From a virus (taxonomy: Duplodnaviria; Caudoviricetes): DNA of 59,071 bases. Shown here one piece after another: positions 5,358 through 43,200 of this stretch (position 1 is its first letter; each line of letters starts with the position of its first letter). Position numbers and translations under genes: made by a program. The notes below the pieces were generated by a model. That model was given only the letters and a program-made list of their open reading frames with translations. It made no database searches and was not told the origin of the DNA. The stretch is taken from the IMG/VR virus record IMGVR_UViG_3300048589_000569, positions 1 through 59,071 of that record; one strand, written 5' to 3'.

Positions 5358-5670
5358 CATCACCCTCTCGTTCGATCAACTGCTCGAACTCATCCGCACC
5401 ATCCAATCCCCAACCCCCAAACCCACCCCCCGCCCCATCCACCCCCTAACAGCGGAACCCCTAACCTCGCGGTCGCTTAATTCTCATGAGGGTGTGGAAA
5501 TGGATCTGGATCGGAGGTTGGGTCCTTCGAATGAACCGCCTCCCGCCGTGAGGCACCTCGGGAGACGAGCGGCGACGGACGAGGAGAGGGAGAGGATGAA
5601 GGAACTGAAGAAGGTGATGTCCGGCGAAGTCAACGACCTCATGGAGGACAGTGCTGCTGGTGGGGAGTGA
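5320..5670 (+). CDS. hypothetical protein (116 aa)
   Basis: In-frame ATG at 5320 within ORF 5110-5670; fills the gap between TerL and portal. Confidence 0.6.
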   Translation: MAKTPSTRVRGSNITLSFDQLLELIRTIQSPTPKPTPRPIHPLTAEPLTSRSLNSHEGVEMDLDRRLGPSNEPPPAVRHLGRRAATDEERERMKELKKVMSGEVNDLMEDSAAGGE

Positions 5671-5673
5671 TAG

Positions 5674-8569: not shown

Positions 8570-8591
8570 GGTTCTCCCAAGGGGGTGACAG

Positions 8592-10058
8592 ATGGCAGAC
8601 AGTTTTTACGATACGATTGAAGGTCGTATCGAACTCCTCTTCAACCGACAGGTGATGGAGTTCGAGTGTGAGGCTTCGCCTCTCTTCAACACCATGATCT
8701 CGAGTGAGGGCACGTTCAAGGGCGCTGGGTCCGGTGGATTCAGCCGCAACTGGTACGTCCGCAAACTCCTCGAGATGGGTGACAACGGTTACTTCGAGAT
8801 GGACGGCGCCAGCGGCACCACCATCAACGGCGATAACATCGGCAACAACGAACTCTTCTACTTCCTCGACCAGACCAACACCGAAGCGCCCGACCCCAAC
8901 CTCGCGGTCGCTGGTCTCCTCACTGTGGAGATGCAGATCCCGCTCCGGGCCGGTCGAGGCGTCCTCACTCGTTCGCTTGACGAGAAGCGTCAGCAGATGA
9001 ACGATGGGTATGTTGGTGAGGAGTATGCGAAGAAGATGATGAGAGCGGCCCGAGGCCTCACTCGTCAGCGTGCAGGTATGCTCTTTGCGGACGACGAGTA
9101 TGGTCTGATCGCGACCATCTCCTCCGTCACCAACGGCACCGGCACCCAGCCCACCTCCACCTCGGACTACACCGAGTACGAGGTCACCATCGCCGACTCC
9201 AAGATTGACGCGTTCCACACGGCGATGCCCATCCAGATCACCACGTCTGCGGGCGTGAGCAAGGGCACGTACTACGTGAAGAACGTGGACCGCGGCGACT
9301 TCACCCTTCGAGTTTACAAGAAGGGCGACCTCACCGCGACTTCGGGTGACGACCTGGAAGTGGGCGACAAGATCTACGCGAACAACGGCGCGCCGGTTTC
9401 GACGCAGTCGTACAGCGTGGACGGCATCAATGCCCACATCAAGGACAGCGGCACCATCTACAACGTGGATATCTCGCTGTTCCCGCAACTCCGCTCGTAC
9501 ATCAAGACTGGTCAGACGGGCCCTCTCACTGAGACCCGCCTGAATAAGTGGCTCGATCACTTCAAGTTCCAGCACGAGTGTTGGGGCAACTACATCGACA
9601 CGCTCATCCTCAACTCTGCGACCCGACGGGCGTGGGTTGAGCAGGAGCAGTCGTATTACACGAAGGAGCGAGCCCGCCAGCCGATGACCCTCGCAGGTCA
9701 GGGTGACGACGGCGTCACCACGTACGTCCACGACGGTGACACGTACAAGATCTACGTGGACAACGCCGTCAAGGACGGTCGACTGCACGGCCTGCGTCTG
9801 GGTGGTCAGAACTACACCAGATACACGCCTCCGTCGACGCCGGGCACTGACACGGCGGGTATGCCTGGGCACACGCCTGTTGAGTTCTGGGCGAGATTCG
9901 TCACGGACAACAACAGCATCTTCGTGCCCAAGTGGGGCTCCAACAACCGCCTCACCCGCGTCTCGTACGCGCCGTTTGATTACCGCATGAACGTCGTGCC
10001 GGATCAGATGGCCGCTCTCCGAATTGACGGTCTGTCTGTCAGCCGTGACTCTCTGTAA
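8592..10058 (+). CDS. major capsid protein
   Basis: 488 aa after the scaffold, strongly biased codon usage, followed by a strong terminator. Confidence 0.8.
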   Translation: MADSFYDTIEGRIELLFNRQVMEFECEASPLFNTMISSEGTFKGAGSGGFSRNWYVRKLLEMGDNGYFEMDGASGTTINGDNIGNNELFYFLDQTNTEAPDPNLAVAGLLTVEMQIPLRAGRGVLTRSLDEKRQQMNDGYVGEEYAKKMMRAARGLTRQRAGMLFADDEYGLIATISSVTNGTGTQPTSTSDYTEYEVTIADSKIDAFHTAMPIQITTSAGVSKGTYYVKNVDRGDFTLRVYKKGDLTATSGDDLEVGDKIYANNGAPVSTQSYSVDGINAHIKDSGTIYNVDISLFPQLRSYIKTGQTGPLTETRLNKWLDHFKFQHECWGNYIDTLILNSATRRAWVEQEQSYYTKERARQPMTLAGQGDDGVTTYVHDGDTYKIYVDNAVKDGRLHGLRLGGQNYTRYTPPSTPGTDTAGMPGHTPVEFWARFVTDNNSIFVPKWGSNNRLTRVSYAPFDYRMNVVPDQMAALRIDGLSVSRDSL

Positions 10059-12650: not shown

Positions 12651-12651
12651 T

Positions 12652-14454: not shown

Positions 14455-14822
14455 ACCTCACCGTATTCATCCTGTCCATCCTCGCAGCGGTTGGATTGGC
14501 GACCGCCATCAGCGAGATGCCCTTCGGCCCCCTCCGCTGGTTCCGCACCAAAGTATCCACCCTCATCGAGAAGGATTGGTGGCGTCAGTTCTGGCACTGC
14601 CCCACCTGCCTCTCTTTCTGGTTCGCCCTCTTCTTCGTCCTCTTCGGTCAGGTGTGGCCCCACCTCCTCCTCTACTCTCTGTTTGGAGGCCTCACCGCCG
14701 TCTTCGTCGTTCGCTACCTCAAAGCCCTCACTCACCCCCGCCCCACCCCAACCATGCCACAACTCCCCATGAACATTGGACCAGTAACCTCGCGGTCGCT
14801 TGAGGATCAGTCGAATGGCTGA
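14451..14822 (+). CDS. DUF1360-like small membrane protein
   Basis: Hydrophobic helices with HCPTCLSFW (CPxCxSxW) motif. Confidence 0.6.
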   Translation: MNLTVFILSILAAVGLATAISEMPFGPLRWFRTKVSTLIEKDWWRQFWHCPTCLSFWFALFFVLFGQVWPHLLLYSLFGGLTAVFVVRYLKALTHPRPTPTMPQLPMNIGPVTSRSLEDQSNG

Positions 14823-15483: not shown

Positions 15484-17855
15484 GAGGAAGAGTCGTCGAT
15501 CAAACTTGGAACTACCGCACCAGCGAAATCAGCCAATCGAAGCGGACTCGTCGCGTCGGTATGGAGAGGGGGTTCTGCCCCGAACTCGTCGGCATTGATG
15601 GTAGGGTTCAAGGGGGCGTTCGTGTGTTCGGAGGTTTCAAGCGAGAGGGCCAGTTGGGTGCGATGACTCCCCTCTCGTCGGATAGCACGGGCTACACCAT
15701 CGACACTCTGCACAACGTCTTCCCCATCAGTTTTCAGGTCGGCTCCTCCGACATCTACCACGGCTACGTCGTTCGCTACACAAACGGCTCCACCGACTAC
15801 ATTGTGGTGGAGTACTTTGATGGGAGCGAGTGGCACATCCAGCAGATCACCAGTGGCTCTTCGGTCGCCGATCAGCCGATGGATGTGGCTGTTGTTGGGC
15901 GACTCGTGTACATCTTCCGAGAGGGGTTTCAGCCCGTCCTCTTCTACGTCGACCCCGACGCCACCGATGAGAGCGTGGTTGTTGCTGACACTGGGCCGGG
16001 CAAGGCCCCCAACACCGATCACGGTTCGGGCATCGTCGGCGAACTCACCGTCACTGTCGTCGACACCCTCCCCTCCGGCGAAGAGGGAGTCCTTCTACCT
16101 CCCGGTTCGTATGCGTTCACTTACCAACTGAGGGATTCGATCACCGGCAGACTCAGTGCGTTGGCCGAACCTGTCCAGATCACCTCGTCTGACTTTCCTG
16201 TTGTGGGATCGGCGCCTGATGAGGCTGCAACCAGCGGCTACATCAAGTTGGAGATCACGAACGCGACGAACTTGGCCAACCGATTCGATCAGATCCGCGT
16301 CTACCGCTCCCTCGAGGTGACTACGGCGGGTGGCTCTTTTGCAAGCAGCATCTACAACCTCGACAAGGTGGACGACTTCATTCTTGACGGAGGCACCTAC
16401 ACCCACTTCTTCGAGTTGGAGGACTACCCCCTCAGCATCCAACCTCTGTACGACAATTCGGCTCAGTTTCTCGAGGACATCCCCTTCGGTAGGGCAGCCG
16501 CCCACTACCAGGGGATGCTCGTTGTGTCCTCGCAGGATCAGGTGGGAGACGACGTGACCGCCATTGGCGAGATTCGTTATAGTTCGCCCACCACCATCAG
16601 CCCCGAACTGTTCCCCCCAGACAACCGCTTCCCTATGGAGGACAGTTCCGATGTGCCCCTCGCGTTTGCGAGGGTCGGTGGCTTCCTCTATGGGTTCAGT
16701 AAGAACCGAATCTACCTTGTCATCAAGAGCGGCATTCAGGTGATCGCGGAGGGGATGCATGAGGGATTTGGGGTGGTTGGGCAGTTCGCCGTCGGCACCG
16801 CCGAGAACTCCGCCTACTACCTCAGCAAGAACGGTTTCCTCCGCGTCGATCGTCAGGGTAACGTCGAGCCCCTCAACGCCATCGACCGCCTCGTCTACGA
16901 GGACTGGGCCGACTCTCTCGAAGAATGCTACGTCACCTTCGACCCCTCAATGAACGCTATCTTCATCCTCAATCCCATCGAGGAGAAGATGGTGTGCTTC
17001 TGGTTCTCCACCTCCTCTGTGTCGGAGATCTGGGACACGAACTTCGCGGTCGCTTCTTATGGCGTTGTTCCTTCGTCAGGGAACGAACTGAAGAGAGCCC
17101 AGTTCTTCAGCAACAAGGGCATCGTCTACCGCTTCGATGACAAGAGGGAGAAGGATCGCGTCGATCTGCTTGACCACTCTGGCCCGGCGATCACCACTGT
17201 CGACTTCACGGCGACCGCCACCTCCTCCGTTCGTGTCGTTGATGAAGGGTACGACACTGACGACATTGTGGGGTGCAAGATCGTGTTCATGAATGGGGAT
17301 TCGGAGTGGCAGATGAGGGAGATTACTGGGATCGTCGAGTCGGCGACCTCCGCTGGACCCACCACCTTCACTGTGGACTCTCCCGTCACCATTGATGAGG
17401 GGGACACGGTTGTTATCAGCCCGGTGAGATTCAGATGGGTGGGTTGGGAGATTGGCCTCGAATCGGAGTTCGGAGGAGCCGATTCGTATAGGGGGGCCGG
17501 TCAGGATTACTTCCGCAGACGCACAATTAAATCTCTAGGGTGCCACTTTATTAGCGTTGACGGGGACGCCTCCGATAACGCGAATGTGGCGGTGTTCAAG
17601 GCGTCCGTTCTGAGCGGCCTGTCGGAAGATCCTGTGGTGGAGAGGGTGGTGAGGTCGTATCAGGACAGGGAGACGGCTGTGGTGGCCGTGGCGGACAATC
17701 CCGGCAGATACCACGCGCCGCTTGGGGAGTTTGGAGTGGCAGGGTCGCTCCTGTTCCCGGTGGTGGAGGTGATGGCGGCAGACTTGGATTTCGTGTTGAT
17801 TTCGGTCACCGTCAATGGTAATATTGAGAGGACGTATAATCCAGAGGGGGCTTAA
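15480..17855 (+). CDS. tail nozzle / tail tubular B-like (beta-propeller) protein
   Basis: 791 aa, beta-rich, propeller-like repeats (EIRYSS, LYGFSKNRIY, AYYLSKNGFLR); position before internal virion genes. Confidence 0.6.
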   Translation: MRGRVVDQTWNYRTSEISQSKRTRRVGMERGFCPELVGIDGRVQGGVRVFGGFKREGQLGAMTPLSSDSTGYTIDTLHNVFPISFQVGSSDIYHGYVVRYTNGSTDYIVVEYFDGSEWHIQQITSGSSVADQPMDVAVVGRLVYIFREGFQPVLFYVDPDATDESVVVADTGPGKAPNTDHGSGIVGELTVTVVDTLPSGEEGVLLPPGSYAFTYQLRDSITGRLSALAEPVQITSSDFPVVGSAPDEAATSGYIKLEITNATNLANRFDQIRVYRSLEVTTAGGSFASSIYNLDKVDDFILDGGTYTHFFELEDYPLSIQPLYDNSAQFLEDIPFGRAAAHYQGMLVVSSQDQVGDDVTAIGEIRYSSPTTISPELFPPDNRFPMEDSSDVPLAFARVGGFLYGFSKNRIYLVIKSGIQVIAEGMHEGFGVVGQFAVGTAENSAYYLSKNGFLRVDRQGNVEPLNAIDRLVYEDWADSLEECYVTFDPSMNAIFILNPIEEKMVCFWFSTSSVSEIWDTNFAVASYGVVPSSGNELKRAQFFSNKGIVYRFDDKREKDRVDLLDHSGPAITTVDFTATATSSVRVVDEGYDTDDIVGCKIVFMNGDSEWQMREITGIVESATSAGPTTFTVDSPVTIDEGDTVVISPVRFRWVGWEIGLESEFGGADSYRGAGQDYFRRRTIKSLGCHFISVDGDASDNANVAVFKASVLSGLSEDPVVERVVRSYQDRETAVVAVADNPGRYHAPLGEFGVAGSLLFPVVEVMAADLDFVLISVTVNGNIERTYNPEGA

Positions 17856-17856
17856 C

Positions 17857-19095
17857 ATGGCATTCGGACCTGACAATCGAGGGTTCTCTGGGGGCGGTCA
17901 ATCCTTCACCAGAGGCCTAGCCGCCCTCAGCGGGGCTGCTCGTGGCAACATGGGCGGCGGCGCCATCAATCGGAGGGCCAAAGGCTCTCAGATGCAGGTG
18001 GTTCCCCCCTCCAACCTTCCGTCGAACTCTAGAGATGGTGGGAGGTCGCTTTACAACGCGAACGGGCTGCCTCGCGTCAACAACCCCAACATGTCGTTTG
18101 GGGAGTACGTGGACAATCGCACTCTCGCTCGTCCAGCGACCGCGAGGCCCGGTGCATTCACTCCGGACGCCACGTTCGGTCAGATGCAGAGGGACTACAT
18201 GAGTAGGGGTGGGGATCAGATCTCCACTTATGGGGGCGAGGGTGGTGAGATGTCCACGATGGACATGCTCAGGGAGGCTGTCGATAGCGACTATGAGCGG
18301 ATGCAGGGGGCTGCTGATCGACAGTGGCAACGGTTGGATCTGGTGAATCAGGAGTTCGCCGGTCGCATTGATCCCGCTGCCGACAGAGCCCGCAATGTTG
18401 GGTTCGAGCAGGCTGACGAACTGACGAGACTGGCCGAGGAGGACAGGGCGTTCTTCGAGCAGAAGAGTGACGAGATTCTCGGTGAGTACAAGAATCTCAG
18501 CGCTCAGCAGACGATGGCTCAGATCACCGGCATGAGACGGAATGTTGAGCAGAGTCTCTTCGAGATTGAGAGTGATCCCAACCTCACTCCCGCTCAGAAG
18601 ATGGCCCAGAAGGAACGCATCCGGTTGGGAGTCAACGAGCAGACGAGTGCCGTGGCCGCTCAACTGGGGGCCCAGTACAACGAAGCGAGGGCGACTCTCG
18701 GTCTCAACCTCAACCAGCAGCGACTCGGAAGCCAGCAGATGAGGCAGGGGATGTATGCTCAGGCTGCGTCGATGCGGATGGCGGCTGAGGCGGCTGCGAC
18801 CGAACTGGAGTTGGGGGGCCTCGTCACCCTCAGCAATCTCATCCGGTCGAACCCGGAGACTGTTGTTAGTCAGGTGACAGGACTCGCCCAACTGATGGCC
18901 ATCGAGTCCAGCGGTGGCGGCGGAGGTGTCTTTAGTCCGTCCGGCTTTATGGGCGGGGGTGGGAGTGAGTCGGCCCCCTTCGGACCTCAGTGGAACTGGG
19001 GATCGCAGGGCGACGAGGCTAGGGACTACGTGAGGGCCAATAGGGGGGGCGAGGACGAAGAGTTTGAGCCCGCCTCCGAGGGGATGCAGCGATGA
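17857..19095 (+). CDS. putative internal virion (ejection) protein
   Basis: Gly/Gln/Met/Ala-rich helical ORF in the ejection-protein position. Confidence 0.5.
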   Translation: MAFGPDNRGFSGGGQSFTRGLAALSGAARGNMGGGAINRRAKGSQMQVVPPSNLPSNSRDGGRSLYNANGLPRVNNPNMSFGEYVDNRTLARPATARPGAFTPDATFGQMQRDYMSRGGDQISTYGGEGGEMSTMDMLREAVDSDYERMQGAADRQWQRLDLVNQEFAGRIDPAADRARNVGFEQADELTRLAEEDRAFFEQKSDEILGEYKNLSAQQTMAQITGMRRNVEQSLFEIESDPNLTPAQKMAQKERIRLGVNEQTSAVAAQLGAQYNEARATLGLNLNQQRLGSQQMRQGMYAQAASMRMAAEAAATELELGGLVTLSNLIRSNPETVVSQVTGLAQLMAIESSGGGGGVFSPSGFMGGGGSESAPFGPQWNWGSQGDEARDYVRANRGGEDEEFEPASEGMQR

Positions 19096-21086: not shown

Positions 21087-22073
21087 ATGGCCAAGCGTCG
21101 CCCCGTCGAAAAACTGAAGGTCAGACGAGTTCCTCGGGACCCCCAAGAGGAACTGGCTCGCATTCTCTCCGCCGCTCTTATGGAGCGGTCGGAGGAGGGC
21201 GGCGTCGAGGGTAGCCTTCGATCCCTCGAGAGTGCGTTGGGCGAGAACATCCTTGGCGCCAAGGCTCCGAAGGCCACGAAGACTGGACGATCGAGGGGGA
21301 AAGCGACCGCGAGGTCAACTGGGCCGAAGGTGTCGAAGGATAAGGCGATGGCTGCTTTGGCGGCTATGCTCGCTCAGGGGCAGCAGCGTCAGTTGCCTGC
21401 CGGGAGTGGGAAGAAGCCCTATAGGGCCGGGCCGACGGCTGCATTCCGGGCTGAGCAGGCGGCTGAGGCTGAGAGGATTCAGCAACGGTCGGGCGCGTTC
21501 CAGAAGATGACGAAGAAGGAGCAGGCCGAGGCCCTCCGCCTCATCAATCAGGAGCAGGCCGTCCGCGATCGCACCACTCGTGTCGCCGGAGCCTCCCGAG
21601 GCACTACGGCGGCGGGCAACTCCCCCATTCCTGTGAGAGGGAGAGAACCCAAACTGCTCACCGGAAGAGTCGCTTCCTCTGCGGCTGATGTGGCGGATGC
21701 CGCCGTTGATGCCCCCGTTAAGAAGGGTGGGGGAAGGGGGTTGCTGAAAGGGGCGGGGGTGGTTGGAGGTGCGTTGGCGATCGCGTCGGCCATCAACCCC
21801 AACATCTTCAGGGACGTGGACAACTTCTTCTCCGGCGGAAATCAGAGGGCTGCGAGGCGTCGGTTGGAGGGGCCGACAGGGGTGGCGATGCAGTTGAGGC
21901 AGCAGAGATTGCAGCGGGCGATGATGGAAAACGAGGCGATGCTGGCTACAATGGATCCTCATCTGTACGCAGAGTTGAATGCCGGTGAGAAGTTGGCTCC
22001 CGGCGCAAGAGTGTTTGGGGGTAGCCCCAATAGGGATGTGGTTGAACAAGCAATCCTTGAGATGATGCGCTGA
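21087..22073 (+). CDS. basic putative internal virion protein (328 aa)
   Basis: K/R/A-rich with a Gly-rich hydrophobic segment. Confidence 0.5.
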   Translation: MAKRRPVEKLKVRRVPRDPQEELARILSAALMERSEEGGVEGSLRSLESALGENILGAKAPKATKTGRSRGKATARSTGPKVSKDKAMAALAAMLAQGQQRQLPAGSGKKPYRAGPTAAFRAEQAAEAERIQQRSGAFQKMTKKEQAEALRLINQEQAVRDRTTRVAGASRGTTAAGNSPIPVRGREPKLLTGRVASSAADVADAAVDAPVKKGGGRGLLKGAGVVGGALAIASAINPNIFRDVDNFFSGGNQRAARRRLEGPTGVAMQLRQQRLQRAMMENEAMLATMDPHLYAELNAGEKLAPGARVFGGSPNRDVVEQAILEMMR

Positions 22074-27466: not shown

Positions 27467-27708
27467 CTAACAAAAACCGCATGGTGTCCATGGAAGGCCT
27501 CAGTCCTCGCCTTCGGGCTGAACTGACTTCAAACCTCCAAGCCTTCTTGTTGGTCGGCTACGACACACAAGGGGCCCCCATCGTTTGCGAGTACGCCCCC
27601 TCCCAAGTACACAGGGATGGTCTTGCTCGACGTTGGGAAGCGTTGAAGTTCGCCACCGAGGACCACAAGAAGGGACTCTTTGGCATCCAAGACGACGAAG
27701 ATGACTAA
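27463..27708 (+). CDS. hypothetical protein (81 aa), last gene of the rightward arm
   Basis: ATGA overlap with the previous gene; its stop overlaps a motif copy. Confidence 0.6.
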   Translation: MTNKNRMVSMEGLSPRLRAELTSNLQAFLLVGYDTQGAPIVCEYAPSQVHRDGLARRWEALKFATEDHKKGLFGIQDDEDD

Positions 27709-27773
27709 CCTCGCGGTCGCTTAAACCCCGGTCGCCGCGTCTCCGAGACGCCGGGGCACAATCCGGTGCTGAA

Positions 27774-27948: not shown

Positions 27949-28021
27949 TGCTCGGGGTGGGAGTCGAACCCACAACAGGGGGTTTAGAAGACCCCTACTC
28001 TATCCATTGAGTTACCCGAGC
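27949..28021 (-). tRNA. tRNA-Arg(UCU)
   Basis: Cloverleaf: acceptor GCTCGGG/CCCGAGC, anticodon arm GGGGT-CTTCTAA-ACCCC, T-arm GTGGG-TTCGACT-CCCAC. Confidence 0.92.
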
Positions 28022-28040: not shown

Positions 28041-30668
28041 TTAGGATCCGCAGTGGCCTCCCTTCCCTGAGATGTCACAGATGTCAGAGTGCTGAATGAT
28101 GGTTTCGGTGAATTCTTTTCCGACATTCTTGAGGGCCTCGCTGTAGGGGACCGGGGTGAGAGGTTGCCCGCCGCGTGCTGCGTCGGGATAGACGGTCATG
28201 CCACGGAGACGTGGGGCGTACTTGGCGAGGATGCTCGCGAAGTGAGGCACTCGCATCTTACTGTTGAGGGGGGTGCCCCACGCGGGCATGTTGATGGTGG
28301 AGGAGATGGCCATGTCGACGTAGTCCTGCATGTCCGCCTGGAACGAGATGCGTCGTTCGGGGTCGGAGGCAAGGGACAGAGCCGTTTCGATGTCGTCGGG
28401 CTGGCAGCCTGTCGTGGCCATCATTTCTCGAGCGGCTGATTCGACGACATACTGGTAGTGGTAGACGTTGTTCTTGAGGTAGATGCGCTTGAAGGAGACT
28501 GCGAAGATCGGTTCGATGCCTGTGGTCGTTCCGGCGAGCATACCGATGGTGCCCGTGGGGGCGATCGCTCGGCAGGCGACAGGTCGGCTGATTGATAGGC
28601 GGGCGGCGTATTCATCAGCGGCCCTCCGAGAGCCGTCTCGGTAGACCTCCATCCACGAACGCAACTCGTCGTTCATCTGGTAGCGGTAGCCACGAGTGAC
28701 GAGCCACTCATGGACTCCCATGAGGCCCAGGCCCAGACGACGGTTCTTCTCACGGACGATGTACATCTTCTGAGTGGGCAACTGGGCCTTGAGTGTGCCG
28801 CAGATGAGGAAGGCGGTGGCCAGTTCGACGCATTGGGTGAACTCCTCCAACGTCTCGATGCGTGAGAGGTTGAGGGATCCGAGGTTGCAGATGTCACTGT
28901 CGTCCTCGGAGGTCACCTCGCAGCAGTTGGAGATGATGACTCCCTCAGCCATGAACGTGTGCTCATCAACACCCACGTCGCAACAGAACACATCCTGCGT
29001 CTCCCCCTCGCTGACAGAGAGGACTCGAACGGAAGACTTACGGTAGGCGTCGTGCTCGGTTGGGGACAGCCGACGGGTGGGGATGAGTGAACGGAAGAGG
29101 TTGTTATACTCGCGGCAGATCACCAACTGGTAGACCTCAGAGCCTCCGTAGGTAGACGAGCCGTTCTTGGAGACATTGGAGAGGATGCCCATGCACTCCA
29201 AGGCTCGTCGGATGTCGTGGAGGAACCCTTCGTGCTTGGAGCAAAGACGGATCGCGTTCTGGCTGGCGTCGTAGTTGCCATCAGCGTCGAACAGCCCTGC
29301 GATGAAGGATTCATTCAACGCTTCGTCCCCGACCGTTTCTTTCGAGCGAGGGTAGCCGAACACGTCCTTCGAGAAGTACACCCTCGTATAGCCACGAGAG
29401 TCATCCCAGTTTACTGTTCCATAGGTGTTGAAGAAGGCGGCTAGACCTCTGGCGATTTCCTTGGACTCCGGAGAGCAGAACGTGATTTCACAGCGCCCCC
29501 CCCTCGAGAAGGATCCATCTCCGTAGGCATAGCCAAGGACGTACATGTAGTCGGAGGTGTTTGGCGACCCGTAGGTGGGCAGAGAGACGTGGAGGATGTC
29601 GTCCTCTTGGAGGTCCTTAGCGGGCACCCTCTCGATCGTGTCGAGAGTTCGAGACTTGCCCTTACCTGACCAGCGTTCGACTAGGAACTCGTGATCGGGG
29701 TCGCAGACGATCTGGCGTCCACCAGTCATGTTGACGGAGATGGTGGAAGTGTTCTCCTTCGTGCAACGGAACACCACGTCGGAGGCCCACTGCTTGCCGG
29801 TCCAGAGGGTGACAGGGGTGTTGACGATGTCGATCACCTGACGGATGCCCTCGGAGGTGTAGACGTGGGTGGAGCCAGCGACCGGGGCGTTACGAAGGGT
29901 TTCGCGGGCCTTGTCGCCGAAGTTGAACGAGAAGCCGGGCTCGCCGTTGCGAAGGGCGTACTCGCAGTTCTTGAGGAACACCTCGTCGGAGGCGGGATCG
30001 GGAAGGGAGAGCCACTTGTCGGAGTAGTTGACGGAGACGTTGGTGTTGTCGAGGGGGCAGGGGAAGGAGAAGTCGGCACGCTTGAGGTCGCCGTACGACT
30101 TGTCAGTGCCTGCGATCTTGCGGTTGTCCCAATCCTTCTCAGCCATGAACTCCATCACATCGTCGTGTTCGCGGTCGAGGGAGGCGTAGATGGCGGAGCG
30201 ACGGGAGCCGCCCTGCATGACGCGTCGACCAATCTCGTTGACCATCCCCATCGCGGGGAGGGGTCCGGAGGCGACTCCGCCCGTACGCGAGAGAGAGCGA
30301 CCGCGAGGTCTGTAGATTGAGTAGTCGAAGCCTAGGCCCATGCCGGTCATGAGCCACGAGGTGGTTTTGTAGGTGAGGTGGGACCAGTCTTCTCGGCTGT
30401 CCTCCTCGCAGCGACCGAGGGCGCAGTTGTTGTAGAACTTCGCTTCGCGGCCAGCATAGTAGAGGTAGCGACCCCCAGGGATGAACTTCATCTGGGCGAT
30501 CATCTGCTCGATCGCTTCGACGGTGTCTCGGGGGAGGAGGTCACCGCACACTTCCCACGTGAGGGTGTGGGCCAGTTTCTCCCACGTCTCACAACCTTCG
30601 TGGCTGTACTTGGCGTAGAAGATGTCGCGTCCGATGTTATTACGGAAGATCCCGTCGATCAGTTTCAT
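28041..30668 (-). CDS. nrdJ: class II (B12-dependent) ribonucleotide reductase with intein
   Basis: FIPGGRYLY, NNC, GGSRRSA, GEPGF, split NA|CCE (NxCxE), CNLGSLNL, RRLGLGLMG, IAPTGT, DMAISSTIN, TVYPD. No NrdB-like small subunit seen. Confidence 0.9.
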   Translation of the reverse strand: MKLIDGIFRNNIGRDIFYAKYSHEGCETWEKLAHTLTWEVCGDLLPRDTVEAIEQMIAQMKFIPGGRYLYYAGREAKFYNNCALGRCEEDSREDWSHLTYKTTSWLMTGMGLGFDYSIYRPRGRSLSRTGGVASGPLPAMGMVNEIGRRVMQGGSRRSAIYASLDREHDDVMEFMAEKDWDNRKIAGTDKSYGDLKRADFSFPCPLDNTNVSVNYSDKWLSLPDPASDEVFLKNCEYALRNGEPGFSFNFGDKARETLRNAPVAGSTHVYTSEGIRQVIDIVNTPVTLWTGKQWASDVVFRCTKENTSTISVNMTGGRQIVCDPDHEFLVERWSGKGKSRTLDTIERVPAKDLQEDDILHVSLPTYGSPNTSDYMYVLGYAYGDGSFSRGGRCEITFCSPESKEIARGLAAFFNTYGTVNWDDSRGYTRVYFSKDVFGYPRSKETVGDEALNESFIAGLFDADGNYDASQNAIRLCSKHEGFLHDIRRALECMGILSNVSKNGSSTYGGSEVYQLVICREYNNLFRSLIPTRRLSPTEHDAYRKSSVRVLSVSEGETQDVFCCDVGVDEHTFMAEGVIISNCCEVTSEDDSDICNLGSLNLSRIETLEEFTQCVELATAFLICGTLKAQLPTQKMYIVREKNRRLGLGLMGVHEWLVTRGYRYQMNDELRSWMEVYRDGSRRAADEYAARLSISRPVACRAIAPTGTIGMLAGTTTGIEPIFAVSFKRIYLKNNVYHYQYVVESAAREMMATTGCQPDDIETALSLASDPERRISFQADMQDYVDMAISSTINMPAWGTPLNSKMRVPHFASILAKYAPRLRGMTVYPDAARGGQPLTPVPYSEALKNVGKEFTETIIQHSDICDISGKGGHCGS
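28926..29885 (-). mobile_element. intein (320 aa) with LAGLIDADG homing endonuclease, in NrdJ
   Basis: PVAGSTHVYTSEG...DPDHEF...LGYAYGDGS...AGLFDADG...HTFMAEGVIISN|C; removal restores NACCE. Confidence 0.88.
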
Positions 30669-31116
30669 AAGCCTCCTTCTCCATCCGAGCCGTCTCAAGT
30701 GCGAGTGCTTGTTCGTCGTTGATCAGTTGTTGAGCCGCCCTCAGTCGACCCATCCTCATGTTGTACTCGTACTCCGTCTCTCCGCTCCTCCGAGGATGCT
30801 CAACCGAACCCCTAACCTCGCGGTCGCTTAAGTGCGTGAGTTCGACGGCGAAAAGGAGACGACAGGAGGCGTTGATGAGTTCGGCGGGGTCGTTGTTGGC
30901 GAGGTTCTCGAAGATGTGCTTGAGGGCATGGTCGAGGTGGTCGCGAACTGGGATGTTGCGCCAGTTGTCAACGCCGTACTTCTCGGCGCCCGCTTTGAGG
31001 ATGCGACCGATTTCCAGGACGGCTATTGGGGGGAGGAGAGAGGGCGCCGTGTTGATGCGGGAGTGCTTGCCCCCACCAGCGGTCACCTCGATCTCCCCAT
31101 TCTCATATTTGCTCAT
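30640..31116 (-). CDS. dATP/dGTP diphosphohydrolase-like (DUF5664) protein
   Basis: ILKAGAEKYGVDNWR...HALKH...ASCRLLF pattern. Confidence 0.75.
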   Translation of the reverse strand: MSKYENGEIEVTAGGGKHSRINTAPSLLPPIAVLEIGRILKAGAEKYGVDNWRNIPVRDHLDHALKHIFENLANNDPAELINASCRLLFAVELTHLSDREVRGSVEHPRRSGETEYEYNMRMGRLRAAQQLINDEQALALETARMEKEAYETDRRDLP

Positions 31117-32630: not shown

Positions 32631-32793
32631 TCAGATCTCCATCTAAAGAACTAGTGTGAAACTCCCCCGCCACTTTTCAGCAGCGGGGGGAGTGTCCGAC
32701 TCAACTCACCTCTGGAATGGCCCCCGTCGCTTACGGGCGAATCGGGGGACCTCGCGGTCGCTTGAGAGATCATACCTCTTCGCCAAGGGGAGT

Positions 32794-33942: not shown

Positions 33943-33956
33943 GAGACTCCTTGGGG

Positions 33957-38800: not shown

Positions 38801-39357
38801 CAGATGGTGGTGATGATTCGCCCGGTGATGTTGGAGTTGGCGAAGGTCGAGTCCCCCGACGAGGCGGTCTGGGGGAGTACGGCCACATAGGAAACGCCGG
38901 TGAGGTCGAACAGTTTGTCCTCGGAGAAGTTGGTCGTCCCGTCGGTGCCTGCGATGGCCGAGAACTCCGCGTCAAGCGTGTTGTCCGTGTCTCGTTGGGG
39001 AAGGGCGGTCCACCACCCATCCACATCGGCGGTGATCCCCTTCCTACGGTCGTCTAGGTTGTTCTTGACGAACCCAAACACCCTAACGGTGGGTTGGGTA
39101 GAGACCAGACCTTCCCATTCGTGACGGATGGACAACCACCCAGCCATCATATCTGTGGGGAGGACGGCGATCTGCCCATCAAACTCGGTCGAGGAACGAA
39201 CCTCAGCCACATCAAGGGTGTCGAGGTCGGAAGGAATGGTCGTGTCAACGTCGGTGACCAGCGTGTAGTAGGGGGTGGTGCTGGTGACCAGTCGTTGGCT
39301 ACCGGCAGCCTCAGTCCACCTGATGCTGGTGATCGTTGCAGTCGGCGTCGTTCCCAT
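38800..39357 (-). CDS. hypothetical Thr-rich beta protein (185 aa)
   Basis: ATG ORF; stop overlaps the next start. Confidence 0.6.
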   Translation of the reverse strand: MGTTPTATITSIRWTEAAGSQRLVTSTTPYYTLVTDVDTTIPSDLDTLDVAEVRSSTEFDGQIAVLPTDMMAGWLSIRHEWEGLVSTQPTVRVFGFVKNNLDDRRKGITADVDGWWTALPQRDTDNTLDAEFSAIAGTDGTTNFSEDKLFDLTGVSYVAVLPQTASSGDSTFANSNITGRIITTI

Positions 39358-39865
39358 TCGATTTCCCCCGGATGTCGTGAACCAACGCCGCGTTGATGAG
39401 CGTCCGCACGACCCATTCCCCGGCTGCCCGCCTCATGACGGGGGTATAGCCCGGAATCAGCATAAGTTCGATACCCCTTATTCTACACTCACGCTGGAGG
39501 GAGTCAACCACCACGAAGGGGTGGTCCGTGTAGGTCGTTTCCCGTTGGACGGTGATGGGACTGCCCTCCAGCATGAGGATGGGGTGGGTGCATTCGTCCC
39601 GTAGTCGGTCGAGGGTTCCCAGGAACCGCTTCCGGTCTTTTGTCATGAGGTTCTTGCTGATCTCCCTCATATCGAACTTTCGTTCGATGAGGCAGACACC
39701 CTCGTACCCTTCGAGGGCATAGTCGCCCGTGCGGAGGCGGCGTCTCACCATGTTGACACTGGCGAGATCGGGCTTCAAATGCCAATTAGCGACCGCGAGG
39801 TTGTTAGGGAGGGGGAAGGGGGCCTGCTCCCGATCGTCGATGATGAGGGTGAATTCTCGTTTCAA
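39311..39865 (-). CDS. ERCC4/XPF-family nuclease (probable resolvase)
   Basis: IIDDREQ, LRTGDY, LIERK and LMLEG motifs. Confidence 0.85.
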   Translation of the reverse strand: MKREFTLIIDDREQAPFPLPNNLAVANWHLKPDLASVNMVRRRLRTGDYALEGYEGVCLIERKFDMREISKNLMTKDRKRFLGTLDRLRDECTHPILMLEGSPITVQRETTYTDHPFVVVDSLQRECRIRGIELMLIPGYTPVMRRAAGEWVVRTLINAALVHDIRGKSNGNDADCNDHQHQVD

Positions 39866-40286
39866 ACCTTCCTTTCCGCATATAGCGACGAGATGTATTG
39901 GGATTCGTCGCTCAGAAGTATAGAGGCCAGTTCCAGGTTGGTCAGCCTCTTGTTCACCGGGGGCTCAAAAGCGGCTCTCTTGAAGGAGACGAAGAAGGTG
40001 GTGAGGGTGGGCGTCGGGTGAGGAAGTTCTTGATCTCTCCCACCGTGCGTAGGGTCGAGACCGCAATCTCCTCGAACGACATTCCCAGGCGACGCATCGT
40101 CACGATCTGTAGGCATTCTTCTGTTCCTTCGGGCAGGGGGGTGCGTGGGAGGAGGCCGGAACTCTTCATCACCTTGATGATGTCGAGGGGGTCGGCGTCG
40201 AGGGCGGCGGCTATCTCGATGACGGACAACTTTTGCGACCAAAGGTGGCTGATCTTGTCCGCAAACGTCAGGTGGGGGGTATTCAT
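39862..40286 (-). CDS. HTH DNA-binding protein, apparently frameshifted near 40010
   Basis: LSVIEIAAAL and GMSFEEIAVSTLRTVGEIK HTH-like segments. The alternative frame continues and ends coupled to the ERCC4 start. Confidence 0.55.
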
Positions 40287-43200
40287 CGTTTCTTTTCCGA
40301 CAACTCGTACTCAATCGGCACTTCGTTGCCGTAGTGAGTCTGCACTTTCGACCAATAGTCGTTCTTCTGCACCTCAACCACACAATCATGGAAGAGGTCT
40401 TTGACTGCCTGCTCCTCCCCCGGATACACGTCAATGCCCACACAGTCGTAGATGTTGAGGACTTGGAGGGACCGGAGTTTCCTTTCCCGAAGGAGGTGGC
40501 GAACGTGGTGCTGAATGTTGAGGAGGGTGAGGGCGGCGGTCGATTGGACGGGGAAGTTGACGACTGTAGACTTGACTTTCTCGATGTCCATCGCGTGGCC
40601 AGGAAACCACCGACTCACCCCGACGAAGGGCAACTCGAGAATGTTCTTGGTCTTCGCCTCCATCAACAGTTGGGCCTGCCAATCCATGAGACGGGGACGA
40701 ACCTTGTGGCGGGAGTTGGCCACCCCCTCAAAGAAGGAGAGGGGCAGGTCTATGCCCAACTTTCCCATGACAGTGTCTCGCATGGTTCCGGGCGAGGAGA
40801 GGAAGAGGTCGGCGAAGTTGATGGTGTTGTGGGTCAGGAGGTAGTCGCGGGTGGCATACAAACGGTCGCCAGCATCTACAGAGATGCAAACGCATTCTGA
40901 CTCACCCGCTGGTTCGATTCCCACGATCTTTCTGAACATTCTGAAGGGAGACCACCTATCGGCTTTCCTCTTCAAATGGAAGCAATTCATTGGAGTCCTA
41001 ATGGTCACACACCAAGCAAAGCCTTCCTTTTTCACCCCTCGATAAGTGTGAGAGGTTGGACGCTTGCGGACTTTTGCGACTCCGCCCAGACTACGGACTA
41101 GTTCGCAAACATCTAAGGCGAGTTGCTTAGAAACAGTCGTGTAGGAGGCAGATCCTCGTGGGGTGATAGTTCCGTCTGTATCCATGAGCCCCCGAAGGAG
41201 ATCTACCCGTTGGGGGACGCTAGCAGCCAAGTATCTCAAGGGGATTCTTTTAGAGTGGGCGTTCTTTCCCCAGCAATCCAACGAACCCAAAGCACCCTTC
41301 AAAGGGTTGATTTTGGTTCTGCCCCGTGTCCCCATCGAGAAACAGACGGCGTGACGAAACTTCCGTTCGATCACTAACCCCCAACCATCCAATTCCTCGG
41401 CGATACGTTCAACGATTTCGTTGTCCTTTTCATCGTTGACAAGGATGGGTGTCCCACAAGTTATAGATCCGTCACCCAAAAAGGCTCCTAACGTGTACGG
41501 CGGGATGTCCAGATCCAACTCAGAGGTCTCGAAGGGCTGCCCTACGGGAATCTCGTATCGCCAACCCTTTTGCCACGAAAGATCGCGAGTTCTGAGGGTG
41601 TCCAACGAGATCACCTCTTCCTTGCCTTGTGTGTCAGTTACCTTCCAAAGGTGTTCACCACAGCAGCGAGTCCACGACCCGTCGTAGAAGGAGATCTTGT
41701 AGATTGGTTTAACCCCTTGCGGGTAAATTCCAGTAACGGATGTGATCCCGTTTGACCCGTAGATCTTGTCACCCACCTTCAAACTACCGATAGTCTTCGG
41801 CCCTTCTGGGGTCATGACAGGTTCATCAACAGGCTGCGCCTTCCCGACCTGTCTGTACTGCGACTTGAAGTAGGGGTCCCTAACGATGTCCTCGCCGAAC
41901 ATCTGGATGGTTCGTTGGGTGTGGAGGTCGCCTCCCCTTTGGTAGTTCTCGATGAGGGAGGGTTCGCCGGAGAGAAGACCGGCGACGCGGAGTTCGATCT
42001 GCGAGAGGTCGAACATGAACATCGAGCCTCCCAACCACCGGGACGTGATGGTCGACTTGATGGAGTAGGGGAGAGTTTGGATGGCCGGACCCTTGCAGGT
42101 GATGCGGGCCTGCAACGTACCGCCTTCGGAGCCTTCGCCGTCCTTGATGGCGCCTGGGATGGGGTACCACGTGGGGTAGGCGATCGTGGCCACCTCACCG
42201 TCGACGCGGATGGGGATGAGACGGGAGGCCTGCTTCTTCTCGTTCTTGGGAGAGTGACGAAGGAGGGGGAAGGTGTAGGAGGAGACCAACTTCGACGCCT
42301 TTTGGTACAGGTCGAAGTAGTGAGTCAACTTCTCCAGTCGGTGGCCTTCGGGGAGGAGGGTAGAGAGGTAGTTGCGGTTGGCGTCCTTTGCGGACACCTT
42401 CTTCGCCGCCTCCGTCAATTCCACCTGCCCCCCATTGAAGTCCGGATGGGTTTTAGCGACCGCGAGGAGTTTGGCCATGAAGCGGTCTTTCGAGCGGACG
42501 GAACCCTTGCCTTCGAGGAGGAGGCCCATCCGTCGGGCTCGTTTGCGGGCCCACTTCATCTGGCGGAGATTCATGAACTCAATGCGTTCGATGGAGGGGG
42601 CGTCCATGGCGATGCCGTTGAGGGCCATGTCCACACAAGTCCAGATGGTGTCGGCGTAGAAGGAGAGGCAGTAAGGGGAAAGTTTGTCGGTATCTGGGCG
42701 GGACTCGAGACGACCGGCCAATTTCGCGAGGGCGAGAACGGTGGCCTCAGTGTCGAGGGCGTTGTACTCGATGATTTCAGGGTCGTTGGGTGAGTAGAAC
42801 TTCCCGTCCTTGATCGTTCGGTGGTACGAATGGGTGCCCAACAACGGGCCCAGATCCTTCAACGACCTCTCCTCTCTCGCCTCATTCTCCAGATAGTTCA
42901 CCACAGACAGGTCGACCAGTTGGACCTCGCGGTCGCTTGAAATCATTTTGGCGTAGTGAAGGTAGAGGAGGTCGAACTGGAGGTAGTGGCCGATGAGGAG
43001 GGTGGCGTGAGAGAGCCACGCTTTGAGCATGGAGAGGTGGGAGAGGTTGCGAGGTTTGAAGACGAGGGTGGTGATGGGGGAGAGGGAGGAGAGGGAGGAC
43101 GGCATCTCGCAGAGGGTGATGGAGACGGTTTGGATGAGATCGCGAGGGTTGACGGAGTCGGTGAAGATGGAACGGGCCGGATGGAAGACCGTTTGGTCGG

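Follow-up and report, generated by a model that had tools for sequence, protein, structure and literature searches.

Why does the plus strand of this viral genome turn repeatedly from C-rich to G-rich, and why at copies of one short word? The window, by which we mean the whole 59,071-nucleotide stretch analyzed, had been described in a preliminary description as carrying a skew inversion centered on motif copies, which were read as about 20 bidirectional mini-origins. We find that the switch is tied to the motif. It is associated with the copies and has an origin-type polarity, it is located at synonymous sites, it is specific for true copies and it recurs in relatives. The mini-origin reading is partly supported, symmetric mini-origins being only one version of a start-site reading. 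What we infer beyond this concerns the cause, which would be mutational, the copies, at which DNA synthesis would start, and the identity of the protein that would read them.

A Dispersed Word and Its Genomic Setting

The 15-mer ACCTCGCGGTCGCTT, with up to two mismatches, has 20 matches on the two strands of the window (12 plus, 8 minus), where shuffled sequences lead one to expect 0.19 (Table 1). The copies are spaced about 3 kb apart across the 59-kb genome, and the 13-nt core CCTCGCGGTCGCT, whose reversed control has no match in the window, is exact in 18 of them. The motif has a 5′ half rich in C and a 3′ half rich in G. Genes contain about half of the copies, and copy orientation is unrelated to the coding strand (8 co-oriented, 5 anti-oriented). 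When aligned with the proteins of relatives, the copies in conserved protein blocks appear as in-place substitutions, and the copy at 23149 displaces residues of a block conserved in those proteins; such substitution within conserved blocks indicates selection on the DNA word itself. The copy at 27708 begins on the final stop-codon base of the last plus-strand gene, where the gene arms converge, and that at 30815 lies just past the dGTP_diPhyd_N domain of its ORF.

The genome, whose left-arm/right-arm gene layout is like that of phage L5, encodes a family A DNA polymerase (PolA), an SF3 helicase, an annealing protein, an exonuclease and a flap-type nuclease. It shares core genes with three complete distant relatives (G001, G002 and G003; TerL about 30% identical). 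The ERCC4-type nuclease gene lies near PolA in the window, G002 and G003. Of the 'DNA primase' PHROG families, the D5-like gene matches the helicase half only. Given the 126-nt terminal repeat, the record ends are either assembly ends or terminal redundancy and not necessarily the ends of the molecule.

Table 1. Motif copies and other features of the window. Switch is delta as defined in the text, with flank length where given.
Feature	Position	Strand	Match or domains	Context	Switch
Copy	931..945	+	perfect 15-mer	intergenic, upstream of D5-like helicase gene	weak, +0.24 (60 nt)
Copy	3817..3831	-	2 mismatches	within TerL gene, read ATAR	none (+0.05)
Copy	5464..5478	+	perfect	intergenic, TerL/portal	strongest, +1.20 (60 nt)
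Copy	8899..8913	+	1 mismatch	within ORF 8592-10058, read LAVA	+0.41
Copy	14787..14801	+	perfect	last 12 codons of ORF 14451-14822, junction with next gene	+0.78
Copy	17041..17055	+	1 core mismatch	within ORF 15480-17855, LAVA frame	-0.15 (60 nt), +0.12 (150 nt)
Copy	18134..18148	-	2 edge mismatches	within ORF 17815-19095, ATAR	+0.23 (60 nt), +0.34 (150 nt)
Copy	21301..21315	-	perfect	within ORF 21087-22073, ATAR	weak, +0.06 (60 nt), +0.09 (150 nt)
Copy	23149..23163	+	perfect	1161-aa tail-region ORF, codon 77, LAVA	+0.23 (60 nt), +0.26 (150 nt)
Copy	23674..23688	+	1 mismatch	1161-aa tail-region ORF, codon 252, LAVA	+0.27
Copy	27708..27722	+	perfect		none (-0.07)
Copy	30295..30309	-	1 mismatch	within ribonucleotide reductase ORF, RPRGR	weak, +0.16
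Copy	30815..30829	+	perfect	within ORF 30640-31116, SDRE on opposite strand	+0.91
Copy	32749..32763	+	perfect	intergenic, Sak4-like / PD-(D/E)XK exonuclease genes	+0.41 (60 nt), +0.54 (150 nt)
Copy	39787..39801	-	1 mismatch	near 5′ end of ERCC4-type nuclease ORF	+0.37
Copy	42454..42468	-	2 edge mismatches	PolA ORF codon 491, LAVA	+0.51 (60 nt), +0.04 (150 nt)
Copy	42924..42938	+	perfect	PolA ORF codon 334, SDRE	+0.95
Copy	49012..49026	-	1 mismatch	within MazG-like ORF, LAVA	weak, +0.20 (60 nt), +0.09 (150 nt)
Copy	53030..53044	+	perfect	intergenic	+0.38 (60 nt)
Copy	57306..57320	-	perfect	intergenic, strongly G-rich block	weak, +0.09 (60 nt), +0.25 (150 nt)
D5-like SF3 helicase gene	993..2360	+	D5_N + DUF5906 domains		
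Sak4-like annealing protein gene	31716-32630	-		conserved in relatives	
PD-(D/E)XK exonuclease gene	32794-33942	-		conserved in relatives	
ERCC4-type (XPF/Mus81-like) nuclease gene	39311..39865	-		conserved in four genomes	
PolA ORF, 1218 aa	40283..43939	-	N-terminal UDG-like domain, LAGLIDADG intein	two motif copies	
Terminal direct repeat, 126 nt	4-129 = 58946-59071		100% identical		

The Skew Switch Is Centered on the Copies

We defined delta as the plus-strand GC skew of the right flank minus that of the left flank, a quantity unchanged by reverse complementing. Compared with random positions, the mean delta of the 20 copies was +0.36 at 60 nt (18 positive, z 5.3) and +0.31 at 150 nt (19 positive, z 6.4), which bears out the centered inversion described earlier. 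The averaged profile has a dip between about -200 and 0, with a sharp local dip from -160 onward, followed by a rise that ends near +250; relative to background, the upstream flank lies at -0.12 (t -2.9) and the downstream flank at +0.08 (t 2.1). Cumulative skew has a local minimum at 5–6 of the 20 copies compared with 4–6% of random positions (p 7e-5 to 7e-3), a comparison that the preliminary description had proposed. Furthermore, when peaks were called blind, 12, 13 and 11 up-steps among the strongest 40 had a copy no more than 40 nt away (1.41 expected), as had 2, 1 and 0 of the 40 strongest down-steps.

The strongly C-rich block 1-5460 terminates at the 5464 copy, which ranks first in sharpness among the up-steps of the genome at the 200-nt and 1500-nt scales and second at 500 nt. 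The G-rich block 32801-34000 begins at the 32749 copy, and the 53030 copy ranks among the ten strongest up-steps at the 500-nt scale; of the largest switches of the window, three lie at borders of such kilobase-scale blocks. The sharpest down-step is at the terminal-repeat junction (-0.80 between 1500-nt flanks).

Hand counts reported earlier for four copies were exact (C36/G4 vs. C11/G21 at 5464, C32/G6 vs. C8/G25 at 14787, C24/G10 vs. C10/G26 at 30815 and C24/G8 vs. C8/G30 at 42924). Three of these flips had been placed within single genes, but only those at 30815 and 42924 clearly are; 5464 is intergenic and 14787 is at a gene junction. The weakness noted at 931, 3817 and 57306 was found again, but the flip claimed at 21301 is also weak, as are those at 27708, 30295 and 17041. 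Perfect 15-mers have a larger switch than imperfect ones (0.42 vs. 0.19, p 0.04), with little or none at the perfect copies 21301 and 27708.

The Switch Resides at Synonymous Sites

Could coding or gene boundaries produce the switch? At four-fold degenerate sites, the 20 copies together had a delta of +0.57 (z 5.2) and the 12 intragenic ones a delta of +0.52 (z 3.9), and the synonymous profile is thus not flat. At codon positions 1 and 2 around intragenic copies delta was not significant, and their third-position bias is diffuse, over ~150–300 nt. At 55 motif-free gene junctions there was no rise, the mean delta being negative and thus opposite in sign. These results indicate that the switch is independent of gene boundaries and amino-acid composition, in line with the earlier account.

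It might still be argued that the motif arises at pre-existing C-to-G transitions, or that the copies mark mosaic joints or gene boundaries. A local-composition model does predict a delta of +0.07 in the window and +0.14 in G002, the latter equal to the observed value, and the position of three of the largest switches at block edges fits such an artefact. However, near-matches with 4–6 mismatches have a delta of about zero (0.017/0.004 in the window; -0.007/0.010, 0.007/0.006 and -0.116/-0.024 in the relatives), compared with +0.31, +0.18, +0.12 and +0.10 at true copies, which largely refutes this artefact in the four genomes. Mosaic joints would not yield a sign that is constant in 18–19 of 20 copies, the motif-free junctions are negative on average, and copies lie inside aligned conserved protein blocks. 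We therefore regard an artefact as exceedingly improbable.

Alternatively, the copies might be promoters, terminators or stoperator-like repressor roadblocks, and the skew would then reflect differences in transcription between the two sides. This would suit the L5-like gene arms, the predominance of one orientation in structural modules and the intergenic position of the strongest copies, and the available text of PMC6550527 describes the stoperators of Cluster A mycobacteriophages as dispersed, asymmetric and phage-specific. On the other hand, the motif is oriented without regard to the coding strand, about half of its copies lie inside genes, and motif-free junctions have the opposite mean delta. 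Neither an integrase nor a resolvase was matched, and no RNA polymerase was found in the family scans run. In L5 itself, each arm has its stoperators strictly oriented (5:1 and 0:11; 17 sites found), and the skew does not switch at them (z -0.9 to -1.4). Transcription signals are consequently a very unlikely explanation.

Distant Relatives Carry Their Own Motifs and Switches

Each of the three relatives has its own 14–17 nt motif, with 23 (G001), 30 (G002) and 28 (G003) copies and no match to the reversed control patterns in these genomes. Delta is positive in all three (z 3.5–3.9, 2.7 and 1.8–4.0), reaching +0.16, +0.17 and +0.16 at codon position 3, and the copies are co-/anti-oriented to the coding strand in proportions of 8/10, 9/9 and 9/7. 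Relatives with shorter motifs, of the CCCCCACTGG type or of the GGCTGGTGGGG type, showed no significant switch. By a simple tally of the site lists of all four genomes, one motif orientation predominates in structural modules.

The D5-like gene has the opposite orientation in the relatives but lies in the same skew domain, and its codon-3 coding-strand skew is -0.64 in the window vs. +0.66, +0.50 and +0.52 in the relatives. Within the PolA ORF, this skew changes from -0.76 before the 42924 copy to -0.27 and then -0.17. The reversal between orthologs and the change in mid-ORF indicate that the strand asymmetry is positional rather than gene-intrinsic.

The polarity is of the origin type, as had been claimed: the C-rich to G-rich switch is accompanied by a G+T (keto) excess that rises across the copies in the four genomes at all three ranges (z 2.0–6.1). 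In 9 of the 12 tests by genome and range the AT-skew delta has a negative sign, but z is -2 or beyond in only four. Purine content likewise rises, which sits badly with pure C-to-T deamination, as deamination does not predict it.

Orientation and Range of the Switch

Do the copies act as symmetric mini-origins that divide the genome into about 20 replicons, the duplex being opened at each of them, perhaps by the D5-like helicase, and copied bidirectionally? The polarity of the switch, the keto excess, the location at synonymous sites and the finding of the switch in relatives are compatible with this, and in the window both flanks depart from background. SF3 helicases, moreover, are origin-opening initiators in other viruses. 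However, the switch depends on orientation, at 0.46 for plus vs. 0.13 for minus copies in the window (about threefold, p 0.02) and 0.27 vs. 0.02 in G001 (p 0.055), which makes the word 'bidirectional' doubtful. In these two genomes it fades within ~250 nt, a range that counts against per-copy replicons, which would be expected to reach half-way to the neighbor, with copies ~3 kb apart.

Each site, furthermore, is one asymmetric copy rather than an iteron cluster, and G+C content shows no dip around the copies and hence no sign of an A+T-rich unwinding element. A staircase model, with one origin of N firing per molecule, fails. Segment means step upward at only 12/20 copies in the window and 10/23, 14/30 and 17/28 in the relatives, and as piecewise-constant breakpoints the copies did no better than random positions in G001–G003. 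Skew does fall between successive copies in the window, G002 and G003 (a sawtooth; p at most 0.016), with no sawtooth in G001. In G002 and G003 the switch extends over 500–2000 nt and, once the local background is subtracted, is not local at all. The polarity, synonymous location, motif specificity and recurrence in relatives support a mini-origin reading in part, but its symmetric form is unlikely.

Could the flank composition instead be selected, the element needing flanks rich in C on the 5′ side and rich in G on the 3′ side, whatever its function? Such flanks might favor a stable G-rich RNA:DNA hybrid or R-loop, a long protein–DNA filament or a local DNA structure. The sharp dip with its CCCC excess upstream of copies (49 vs. 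16.9 expected), the C5–C7 runs inside the relatives' motifs and the rise of purines besides keto bases agree with this, and G-quadruplex-type runs occur on the strand leaving the site at 5464, 14787, 42924 and 57306. Against it, in none of the four genomes are G-quadruplex patterns systematically linked to copies, a hairpin is absent (mean folding energy -62.5 vs. -65.6 at random positions), and the third-position bias, over ~150–300 nt and 0.5–2 kb in G002/G003, far exceeds a binding footprint. We consider selected flanks improbable.

Putative Start Sites of Strand-Asymmetric Synthesis

Judging from sequence, we tentatively favor the motif copies as putative dispersed start sites of strand-asymmetric DNA synthesis, a reading to which we would give a little less than an even chance. 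Cis-acting copies, about every 3 kb, would start synthesis in a primer-, nick- or initiator-dependent manner, and the strand leaving an active copy 5′ to 3′ would remain single-stranded longer than its complement. Over evolutionary time, this strand would lose C and gain G and T at silent positions, a footprint like that of leading-strand sequence at a replication origin. The outcome would be a copy-centered switch from C-rich to G-rich on either strand, partly declining toward the next copy. A phage protein that co-evolves with the lineage-specific tag of 13–17 nt would presumably read it. Conserved candidates are the D5-like SF3 helicase, whose link to the motif is conjecture, and the ERCC4-type nuclease. 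Within this class we favor, as possible though somewhat doubtful, strand-specific priming or nick-extension, as on a displaced or lagging-strand template, because of the orientation dependence in the window and G001 and the short range. We found no precedent for 20–30 initiation sites in 58 kb.

A related possibility is that the copies are recognition sites of a recombination or nuclease-control system, the skew stemming from recombination-associated single strands. They could be Chi-like attenuators of a helicase-nuclease, nicking sites as in T5, tf and phiKMV, or hotspots of the Sak4/exonuclease/ERCC4 module. The recombination genes are kept in all four genomes, and in one relative group the GGCTGGTGGGG-type word, which contains the E. 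coli Chi octamer, has an orientation polarity of 11:1 and 8:0. Phage nick sites with a 9–19 nt consensus are on record in the available text of PMC3517423, and a nick extended by a strand-displacing PolA overlaps with the start-site explanation. However, simple 5′-to-3′ resection starting at a break, or Chi-type processing, would expose the 3′-ended strand and, with deamination, give the opposite sign. The known nick systems, as that text presents them (PMC3517423), are confined to one strand, whereas the strand split here is 12:8 in the window and 9:14, 21:9 and 17:11 in G001, G002 and G003. The motif is dense in no prokaryote genome among the matches listed (120 stretches), and a core of 13–17 invariant nt is long for Chi. 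A recombination or nuclease system is thus also improbable as the source of the switch.

Comparison with Known Systems

T4 and T7 have multiple or secondary origins, some of them promoter- or R-loop-primed. These are a handful of heterogeneous sites, unlike the 20–30 copies of one genome-specific word described here.

Strand specificity is a property of the IncQ sites ssiA and ssiB, which are single-strand initiation sites. Primases, too, read strand-specific words: 5′-TTTGGTTA-3′ and 5′-GTG-3′ for NrS-1 PrimPol and GTG for pRN1 ORF904, and such template words, at which DNA or RNA primers are begun, have been proposed to set where phage genome replication begins (PMC8718748). This specificity resembles our orientation effect, but those sites are 3–8 nt words or hairpins, compared with 13–17 invariant nt and no hairpin here, and the available text of PMC8718748 reports no skew footprint for primase words. 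A further difference is that this genome has no match to Prim-Pol (PF09250) or Toprim_2 (PF13155), the two primase families searched.

Stoperators are 13 bp long and present in about 30 copies. Those of L5 share with our motif an asymmetric, phage-specific and dispersed word in a genome of similar layout and gene content, and their consensus drifts between relatives (PMC6550527, as far as available). They differ in having one orientation relative to transcription and in belonging to temperate phages, whereas here orientation ignores the coding strand and an integrase was not found. The 17-bp repeat of the Cluster O mycobacteriophage Corndog has no known function and more than 30 invariant copies, one third of them intragenic and not promoter-tied (PMC4351075, in the text available). 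It is likewise spread through a lytic-looking phage genome, but it is a palindrome (a dimer site), and its 34 copies showed no skew switch (z -1.3 to 1.7), the keto excess, if anything, falling.

In mammalian N-domains, skew jumps upward at fixed origins and declines between them (PMC2764438, in the text available). The sawtooth in the window, G002 and G003 is similar, and this likeness to the N-shaped skew between fixed human origins favors symmetric mini-origins. The mammalian scale, however, is megabases rather than ~3 kb, those origins have no sequence word, and the effect here is in part confined to 250 nt or less and, in two genomes, orientation-dependent.

Finally, the nick sites of T5, phiKMV-like and tf/LUZ24-like phages all lie on one strand, with a consensus of 7–19 nt that includes variable positions. 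The available text of PMC3517423 reports no skew effect for them, and the term 'GC skew' is absent from that paper. Like our motif, they are short consensus words at fixed, dispersed places, and a nick extended by PolA would give an asymmetry of the kind seen here.

Skew Switches at the Motif Copies

The word ACCTCGCGGTCGCTT occurs 20 times in the window at up to two mismatches (12 copies in '+' and 8 in '-' orientation, versus 0.19 expected), and its 13-nt core is exact in 18 of the copies. We expressed the strand asymmetry at each copy as delta, the GC skew of the right flank minus that of the left flank on the + strand, which is invariant under reverse complementing and is positive where a C-rich flank is followed by a G-rich one. 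The mean delta was +0.36 with 60-nt flanks (18/20 copies positive, z 5.3) and +0.31 with 150-nt flanks (19/20 positive, z 6.4). The negative-to-positive flip that the preliminary description had proposed from four hand counts of C and G, all of which were exact, is therefore borne out. The averaged skew profile around the copies is not flat, dipping from -200 to 0 and rising from 0 to +250, and 5–6 copies are local minima of the cumulative skew, versus 4–6% by chance. CCCC is enriched upstream of the copies (49 occurrences versus 16.9 expected), which is compatible with the less likely alternative that the composition of the flanks was selected instead of arising by mutation.

Could gene boundaries or amino-acid composition produce such a pattern, as the preliminary description had allowed? 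The minima do not follow gene boundaries, and a generic gene-junction effect was rejected because the mean delta at 55 motif-free junctions was negative (-0.07 to -0.11). About half of the copies lie within ORFs, in several frames and on either strand, where they read as LAVA seven times, ATAR three times and SDRE twice. For the 12 copies within genes, the switch is seen at codon position 3 (+0.46 to +0.52, z ~4.4), and delta is not significant at positions 1 and 2; in the PolA ORF, the copy in codon 334 marks a change of the codon-3 skew from -0.76 to -0.27. The four-fold degenerate sites gave a delta of +0.57 for all copies (z 5.2) and +0.52 for the intragenic copies (z 3.9). Amino-acid composition was thus rejected as the cause, since the four-fold sites carry the effect and positions 1 and 2 do not.

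Each motif site is a single copy without an iteron cluster, apart from a few close pairs. In the window these are 30295/30815, 42454/42924 and 23149/23674 (470–525 nt apart); similar pairs exist in the relatives, and paired copies overall lie 120–525 nt apart, often in opposite orientation.

Different Words, the Same Switch

TerL relatives at ~30% identity carry repeated words of their own, and three complete records (G001, G002 and G003) were analyzed, for which reversed control patterns gave 0 copies. All three have the D5-like helicase, TerL, portal, capsid, tail, Sak4, exonuclease, ERCC4 nuclease and PolA genes in common with the window. Delta was positive in G001, G002 and G003 (z 3.5–3.9, 2.7 and 1.8–4.0, respectively), with third-position deltas of +0.16, +0.17 and +0.16. 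The keto (G+T) delta was positive in all four genomes (z 2.0–6.1), and purine content likewise rose across the copies. The AT-skew delta was negative in 9 of 12 tests, four of them with z <= -2, and the four-fold AT delta was not significant.

In a blind search at three window sizes, the ten strongest up-steps and the ten strongest down-steps were picked in each of the four genomes. Within 40 nt of a copy lay 12, 13 and 11 of 40 up-steps, versus 1.41 expected (p 3e-7 to 4e-9), and 2, 1 and 0 of 40 down-steps. With 1500-nt flanks, the window, G002 and G003 each have their sharpest genome-wide up-step at a motif copy. In these same three genomes the skew falls between copies in a sawtooth, and none was seen in G001; sawtooths drawn separately from majority- and minority-orientation copies did not discriminate between a one-sided and a two-sided effect with respect to motif orientation.

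These results confirm the observation and extend it to a phage family, and the interpretation first placed on it, some 20 distributed bidirectional mini-origins, is partly supported: in its general form, as distributed starts, it may hold, but the symmetric bidirectional version is disfavored. A symmetric bidirectional mini-origin at every copy is doubtful because the switch depends on orientation: in the window, '+' copies show it three times as strongly as '-' copies (p 0.02), and G001 has the opposite bias (p 0.055). The effect is also short-ranged in the window and G001 (~250 nt; 0.5–2 kb in G002 and G003), and the G+C content stays at 0.57–0.62 around the copies, without the local drop expected of an A+T-rich unwinding element. 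Finally, a staircase model with a permanent up-step per copy was not supported: breakpoints at the copies fared no better than random ones in G001–G003, and the segment means did not rise.

Motif orientation is unrelated to the coding strand (8/5, 8/10, 9/9 and 9/7 co-/anti-oriented copies in the four genomes), which argues against promoters, terminators and stoperators. By hand tally, one orientation dominates the structural modules (7:2 in the window at 5464–27722; ~6:2, 11:3 and 8:2 in the relatives), and orientations are mixed outside them. Read in the structural-module orientation, the window word and the G002 word each start with ACCT.

Other TerL relatives have shorter words, namely CCCCCACTGG and a second type written as GGCTGGTGGGG or CCCCACCAGCC; CCCCACCAGCC is complementary to a word in which the Chi octamer of E. 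coli is embedded. These words are strongly polar in orientation (e.g., 11:1 and 8:0) and showed no significant skew switch.

Compositional and Structural Artefacts

The motif itself is C-rich at its 5' side and G-rich at its 3' side and could thus form most readily where such a transition already exists. From local composition alone, a model predicted a delta of +0.07 in the window and +0.14 in G002. Near-matches with 4–6 mismatches gave a delta of ~0 in all four genomes, whereas the true copies gave +0.31, +0.18, +0.12 and +0.10 (window, G001, G002 and G003), and this control rejects an artefact of compositional context. A long hairpin with the motif in its loop was rejected on folding energy (-62.5 versus -65.6 for random positions) and cross-pairs (18.4 versus 17.2). 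G-quadruplexes beside the copies were rejected as a general feature, since each flank class held only 0–2 such runs in a genome, about the number expected.

In homologue alignments the copies fall within conserved protein blocks and arise by in-place substitution, not insertion, which rejects an inserted mobile mini-element. A host-genome signal seems unlikely, as each of the prokaryote stretches listed (at least 120) held a single motif match. Among the stretches matching the word (32 from IMG/VR and at least 120 from metagenomes), each had one match except one with two; there was no close relative with the same word among them, and none of those listed resembles the window at the DNA level.

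Genome Organization

The window spans the whole of its IMG/VR virus entry (59,071 bp, 59% G+C). A direct repeat of 126 nt, 100% identical, lies at both ends, so the genome is circularly assembled or terminally redundant; the record class 'linear, no end repeats' is at odds with this repeat. The + strand genes span ~374 to 27708 and the - strand genes 28041 to 58956.

Positions of genes, down-steps and repeated words in the window and its TerL relatives
Genome	Feature	Position	Strand	Remark
Window	Direct repeat	4-129 = 58946-59071		
Window	D5-like SF3 helicase	993-2360	+	Left gene arm
G001	D5-like orthologue	42126-43574		
G002	D5-like orthologue	676-2109		
G003	D5-like orthologue	53986-55542		
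Window	Large terminase (TerL)	3414-5357	+	Left gene arm
Window	Portal and tail genes		+	+ strand arm
Window	tRNA-Arg(TCT)	27949-28021	-	Rfam
Window	Ribonucleotide reductase with LAGLIDADG-type intein	28041-30698	-	
Window	ORF with MazZ-like domain	30640-31116		
Window	964-aa ORF	33957-36851		
Window	Family A DNA polymerase, UDG-like N-terminal domain and LAGLIDADG intein	40283-43939	-	
Window	Sak4-like annealing protein, PD-(D/E)XK exonuclease, ERCC4-type nuclease		-	- strand arm
Window	ThyX and MazG-like protein		-	- strand arm
Window	tRNA-Glu(CTC)	56394-56468	-	Rfam
Window	Down-step	59071/1		Record junction
G001	Down-step	~40031		
G002	Down-step	~2271		
G003	Down-step	~2511		
G001	GAGTCCCATCCGATA			58,311 bp; 23 copies, 9:14
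G002	CACCCCCTCCAGGT			59,821 bp; 30 copies, 21:9
G003	GACCCCCCTCCCACAGC			55,724 bp; 28 copies, 17:11
L041, L043, L048, L050, L052-L055, L057, L060; L095, L099, L108, L110	Shorter words			TerL relatives

The Rfam scan of the window gave nothing beyond the two tRNAs. The UDG-superfamily N-terminal domain of the polymerase lies outside the alignments to the relatives' PolA. The MazZ-like domain is a dATP/dGTP diphosphohydrolase N-terminal domain (E 2e-12); a Z-base pathway was rejected, as a PurZ-type adenylosuccinate synthetase was unmatched in the window genome. The 964-aa ORF, with 67% G+C versus 59% for the genome, is compositionally foreign to its neighbors and gave no Pfam or PHROG match. 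Among isolated phages, neither the DNA nor the portal of the window found a match, and the TerL and PolA hits reach at most 25% identity. The TerL cluster is represented on 5 contigs.

On the genome scale, the skew drops sharply from G-rich to C-rich at one point beside the D5-like gene in each of the four genomes (-0.47 to -0.80 with 1500-nt flanks) and ramps up over the remaining genome (r 0.32–0.64). This down-step looks like a fixed terminus or a molecular end combined with dispersed starts. Compared with G001–G003, the window has its D5-like gene turned around relative to TerL, within the same skew domain. The codon-3 coding-strand GC skew of this gene is -0.64 in the window versus +0.66, +0.50 and +0.52 in the relatives. 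Since the sign is opposite after inversion, the asymmetry depends on position and not on the gene or on how it is transcribed, and the synonymous codon usage of the D5-like gene is fully re-set by genome position.

A Possible Mechanism and Its Implications

Could the copies be start sites of DNA synthesis? This is the best-supported class of explanation, which we hold with slightly less than even confidence. In the simplest reading, a strand-asymmetric DNA transaction would begin at the motif copies, and the strand departing from a copy 5' to 3' would more often be single-stranded and so drift to G and T. With a strand-specific start, the skew would step up at every active copy and then fall towards the next; the synthesis could, for example, be primed on a lagging-strand or displaced template, or could extend a nick by means of the phage PolA. 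Such a start is consistent with the genome, in which neither primase family searched for (Prim-Pol and Toprim_2) matched. The D5-like protein matches the primase families in their helicase half only. By our reasoning, 5'-to-3' resection of a break or Chi-type processing would give the opposite skew sign.

A more specific reading, which we offer tentatively from the sequence comparisons, is that this uncultured phage lineage of ~56–60 kb copies its DNA from 20–30 sequence-defined sites, each with one copy of a tag. It is equally conjectural that this genome-specific tag of 13–17 nt would co-evolve with a phage protein, and that it might have been written into genes by silent and amino-acid-changing substitutions.

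If true, a bacterial virus would have a multi-site system of replication or priming that is addressed by sequence, and this would be the first phage group with initiation or priming over dozens of identical genome-specific tags. Origin-type skew switches would reveal the activity of the system in the genome sequence itself; together with the lone down-step by the helicase gene, they would allow a complete replication programme to be read from sequence, and metagenomes would disclose how uncultured viruses replicate. The arrangement would also explain the dense, invariant, orientation-free words inside some phages' genes and offer a naturally occurring system for sequence-addressed priming or nick-and-displace DNA synthesis. 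Whatever the mechanism, the link between word and synonymous skew is replicated in four genomes with four words and is absent in two dispersed-motif phages. The family is moreover a useful model for mutational strand bias, because its strong position-dependent asymmetry flips the codon-3 skew of an orthologue from +0.5 to -0.64 on inversion.

Comparison with Known Dispersed-Site Systems

A classical phage or plasmid origin has an iteron cluster and an A+T-rich element, whereas the motif sites have neither. Primase and ssi sites go with a phage primase, and ssi sites also with a single-strand hairpin; the window has neither primase match and no excess folding, although a host primase or an unrecognized one may still serve it. 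Chi-like sites are short (5–8 nt), G-rich, polar words over-represented in the host chromosome. The window motif, in contrast, has a 13-nt invariant core, is not G-rich and is mixed in orientation.

The stoperators of Cluster A phages keep to one orientation relative to transcription (PMC6550527). In our L5 control we found 17 stoperators, strictly oriented (5:1 and 0:11) and without a skew switch, whereas the window copies ignore the coding strand. The phages that carry stoperators are temperate, with an integrase or partition system and an immunity repressor; the Phage_integrase and Resolvase profiles had no match in the window, and no repressor family was found among the ORFs scanned. A Corndog control, with 34 copies of a 17-bp palindrome, likewise showed no skew switch. 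We found no published skew switch at a dispersed phage word in the literature covered, on nick consensus sequences, multi-origin skew and dispersed motifs. The known phage nick sites of the T5, tf and phiKMV type lie on one DNA strand only (PMC3517423), whereas the words described here occur in both orientations in every genome (12:8, 9:14, 21:9 and 17:11).
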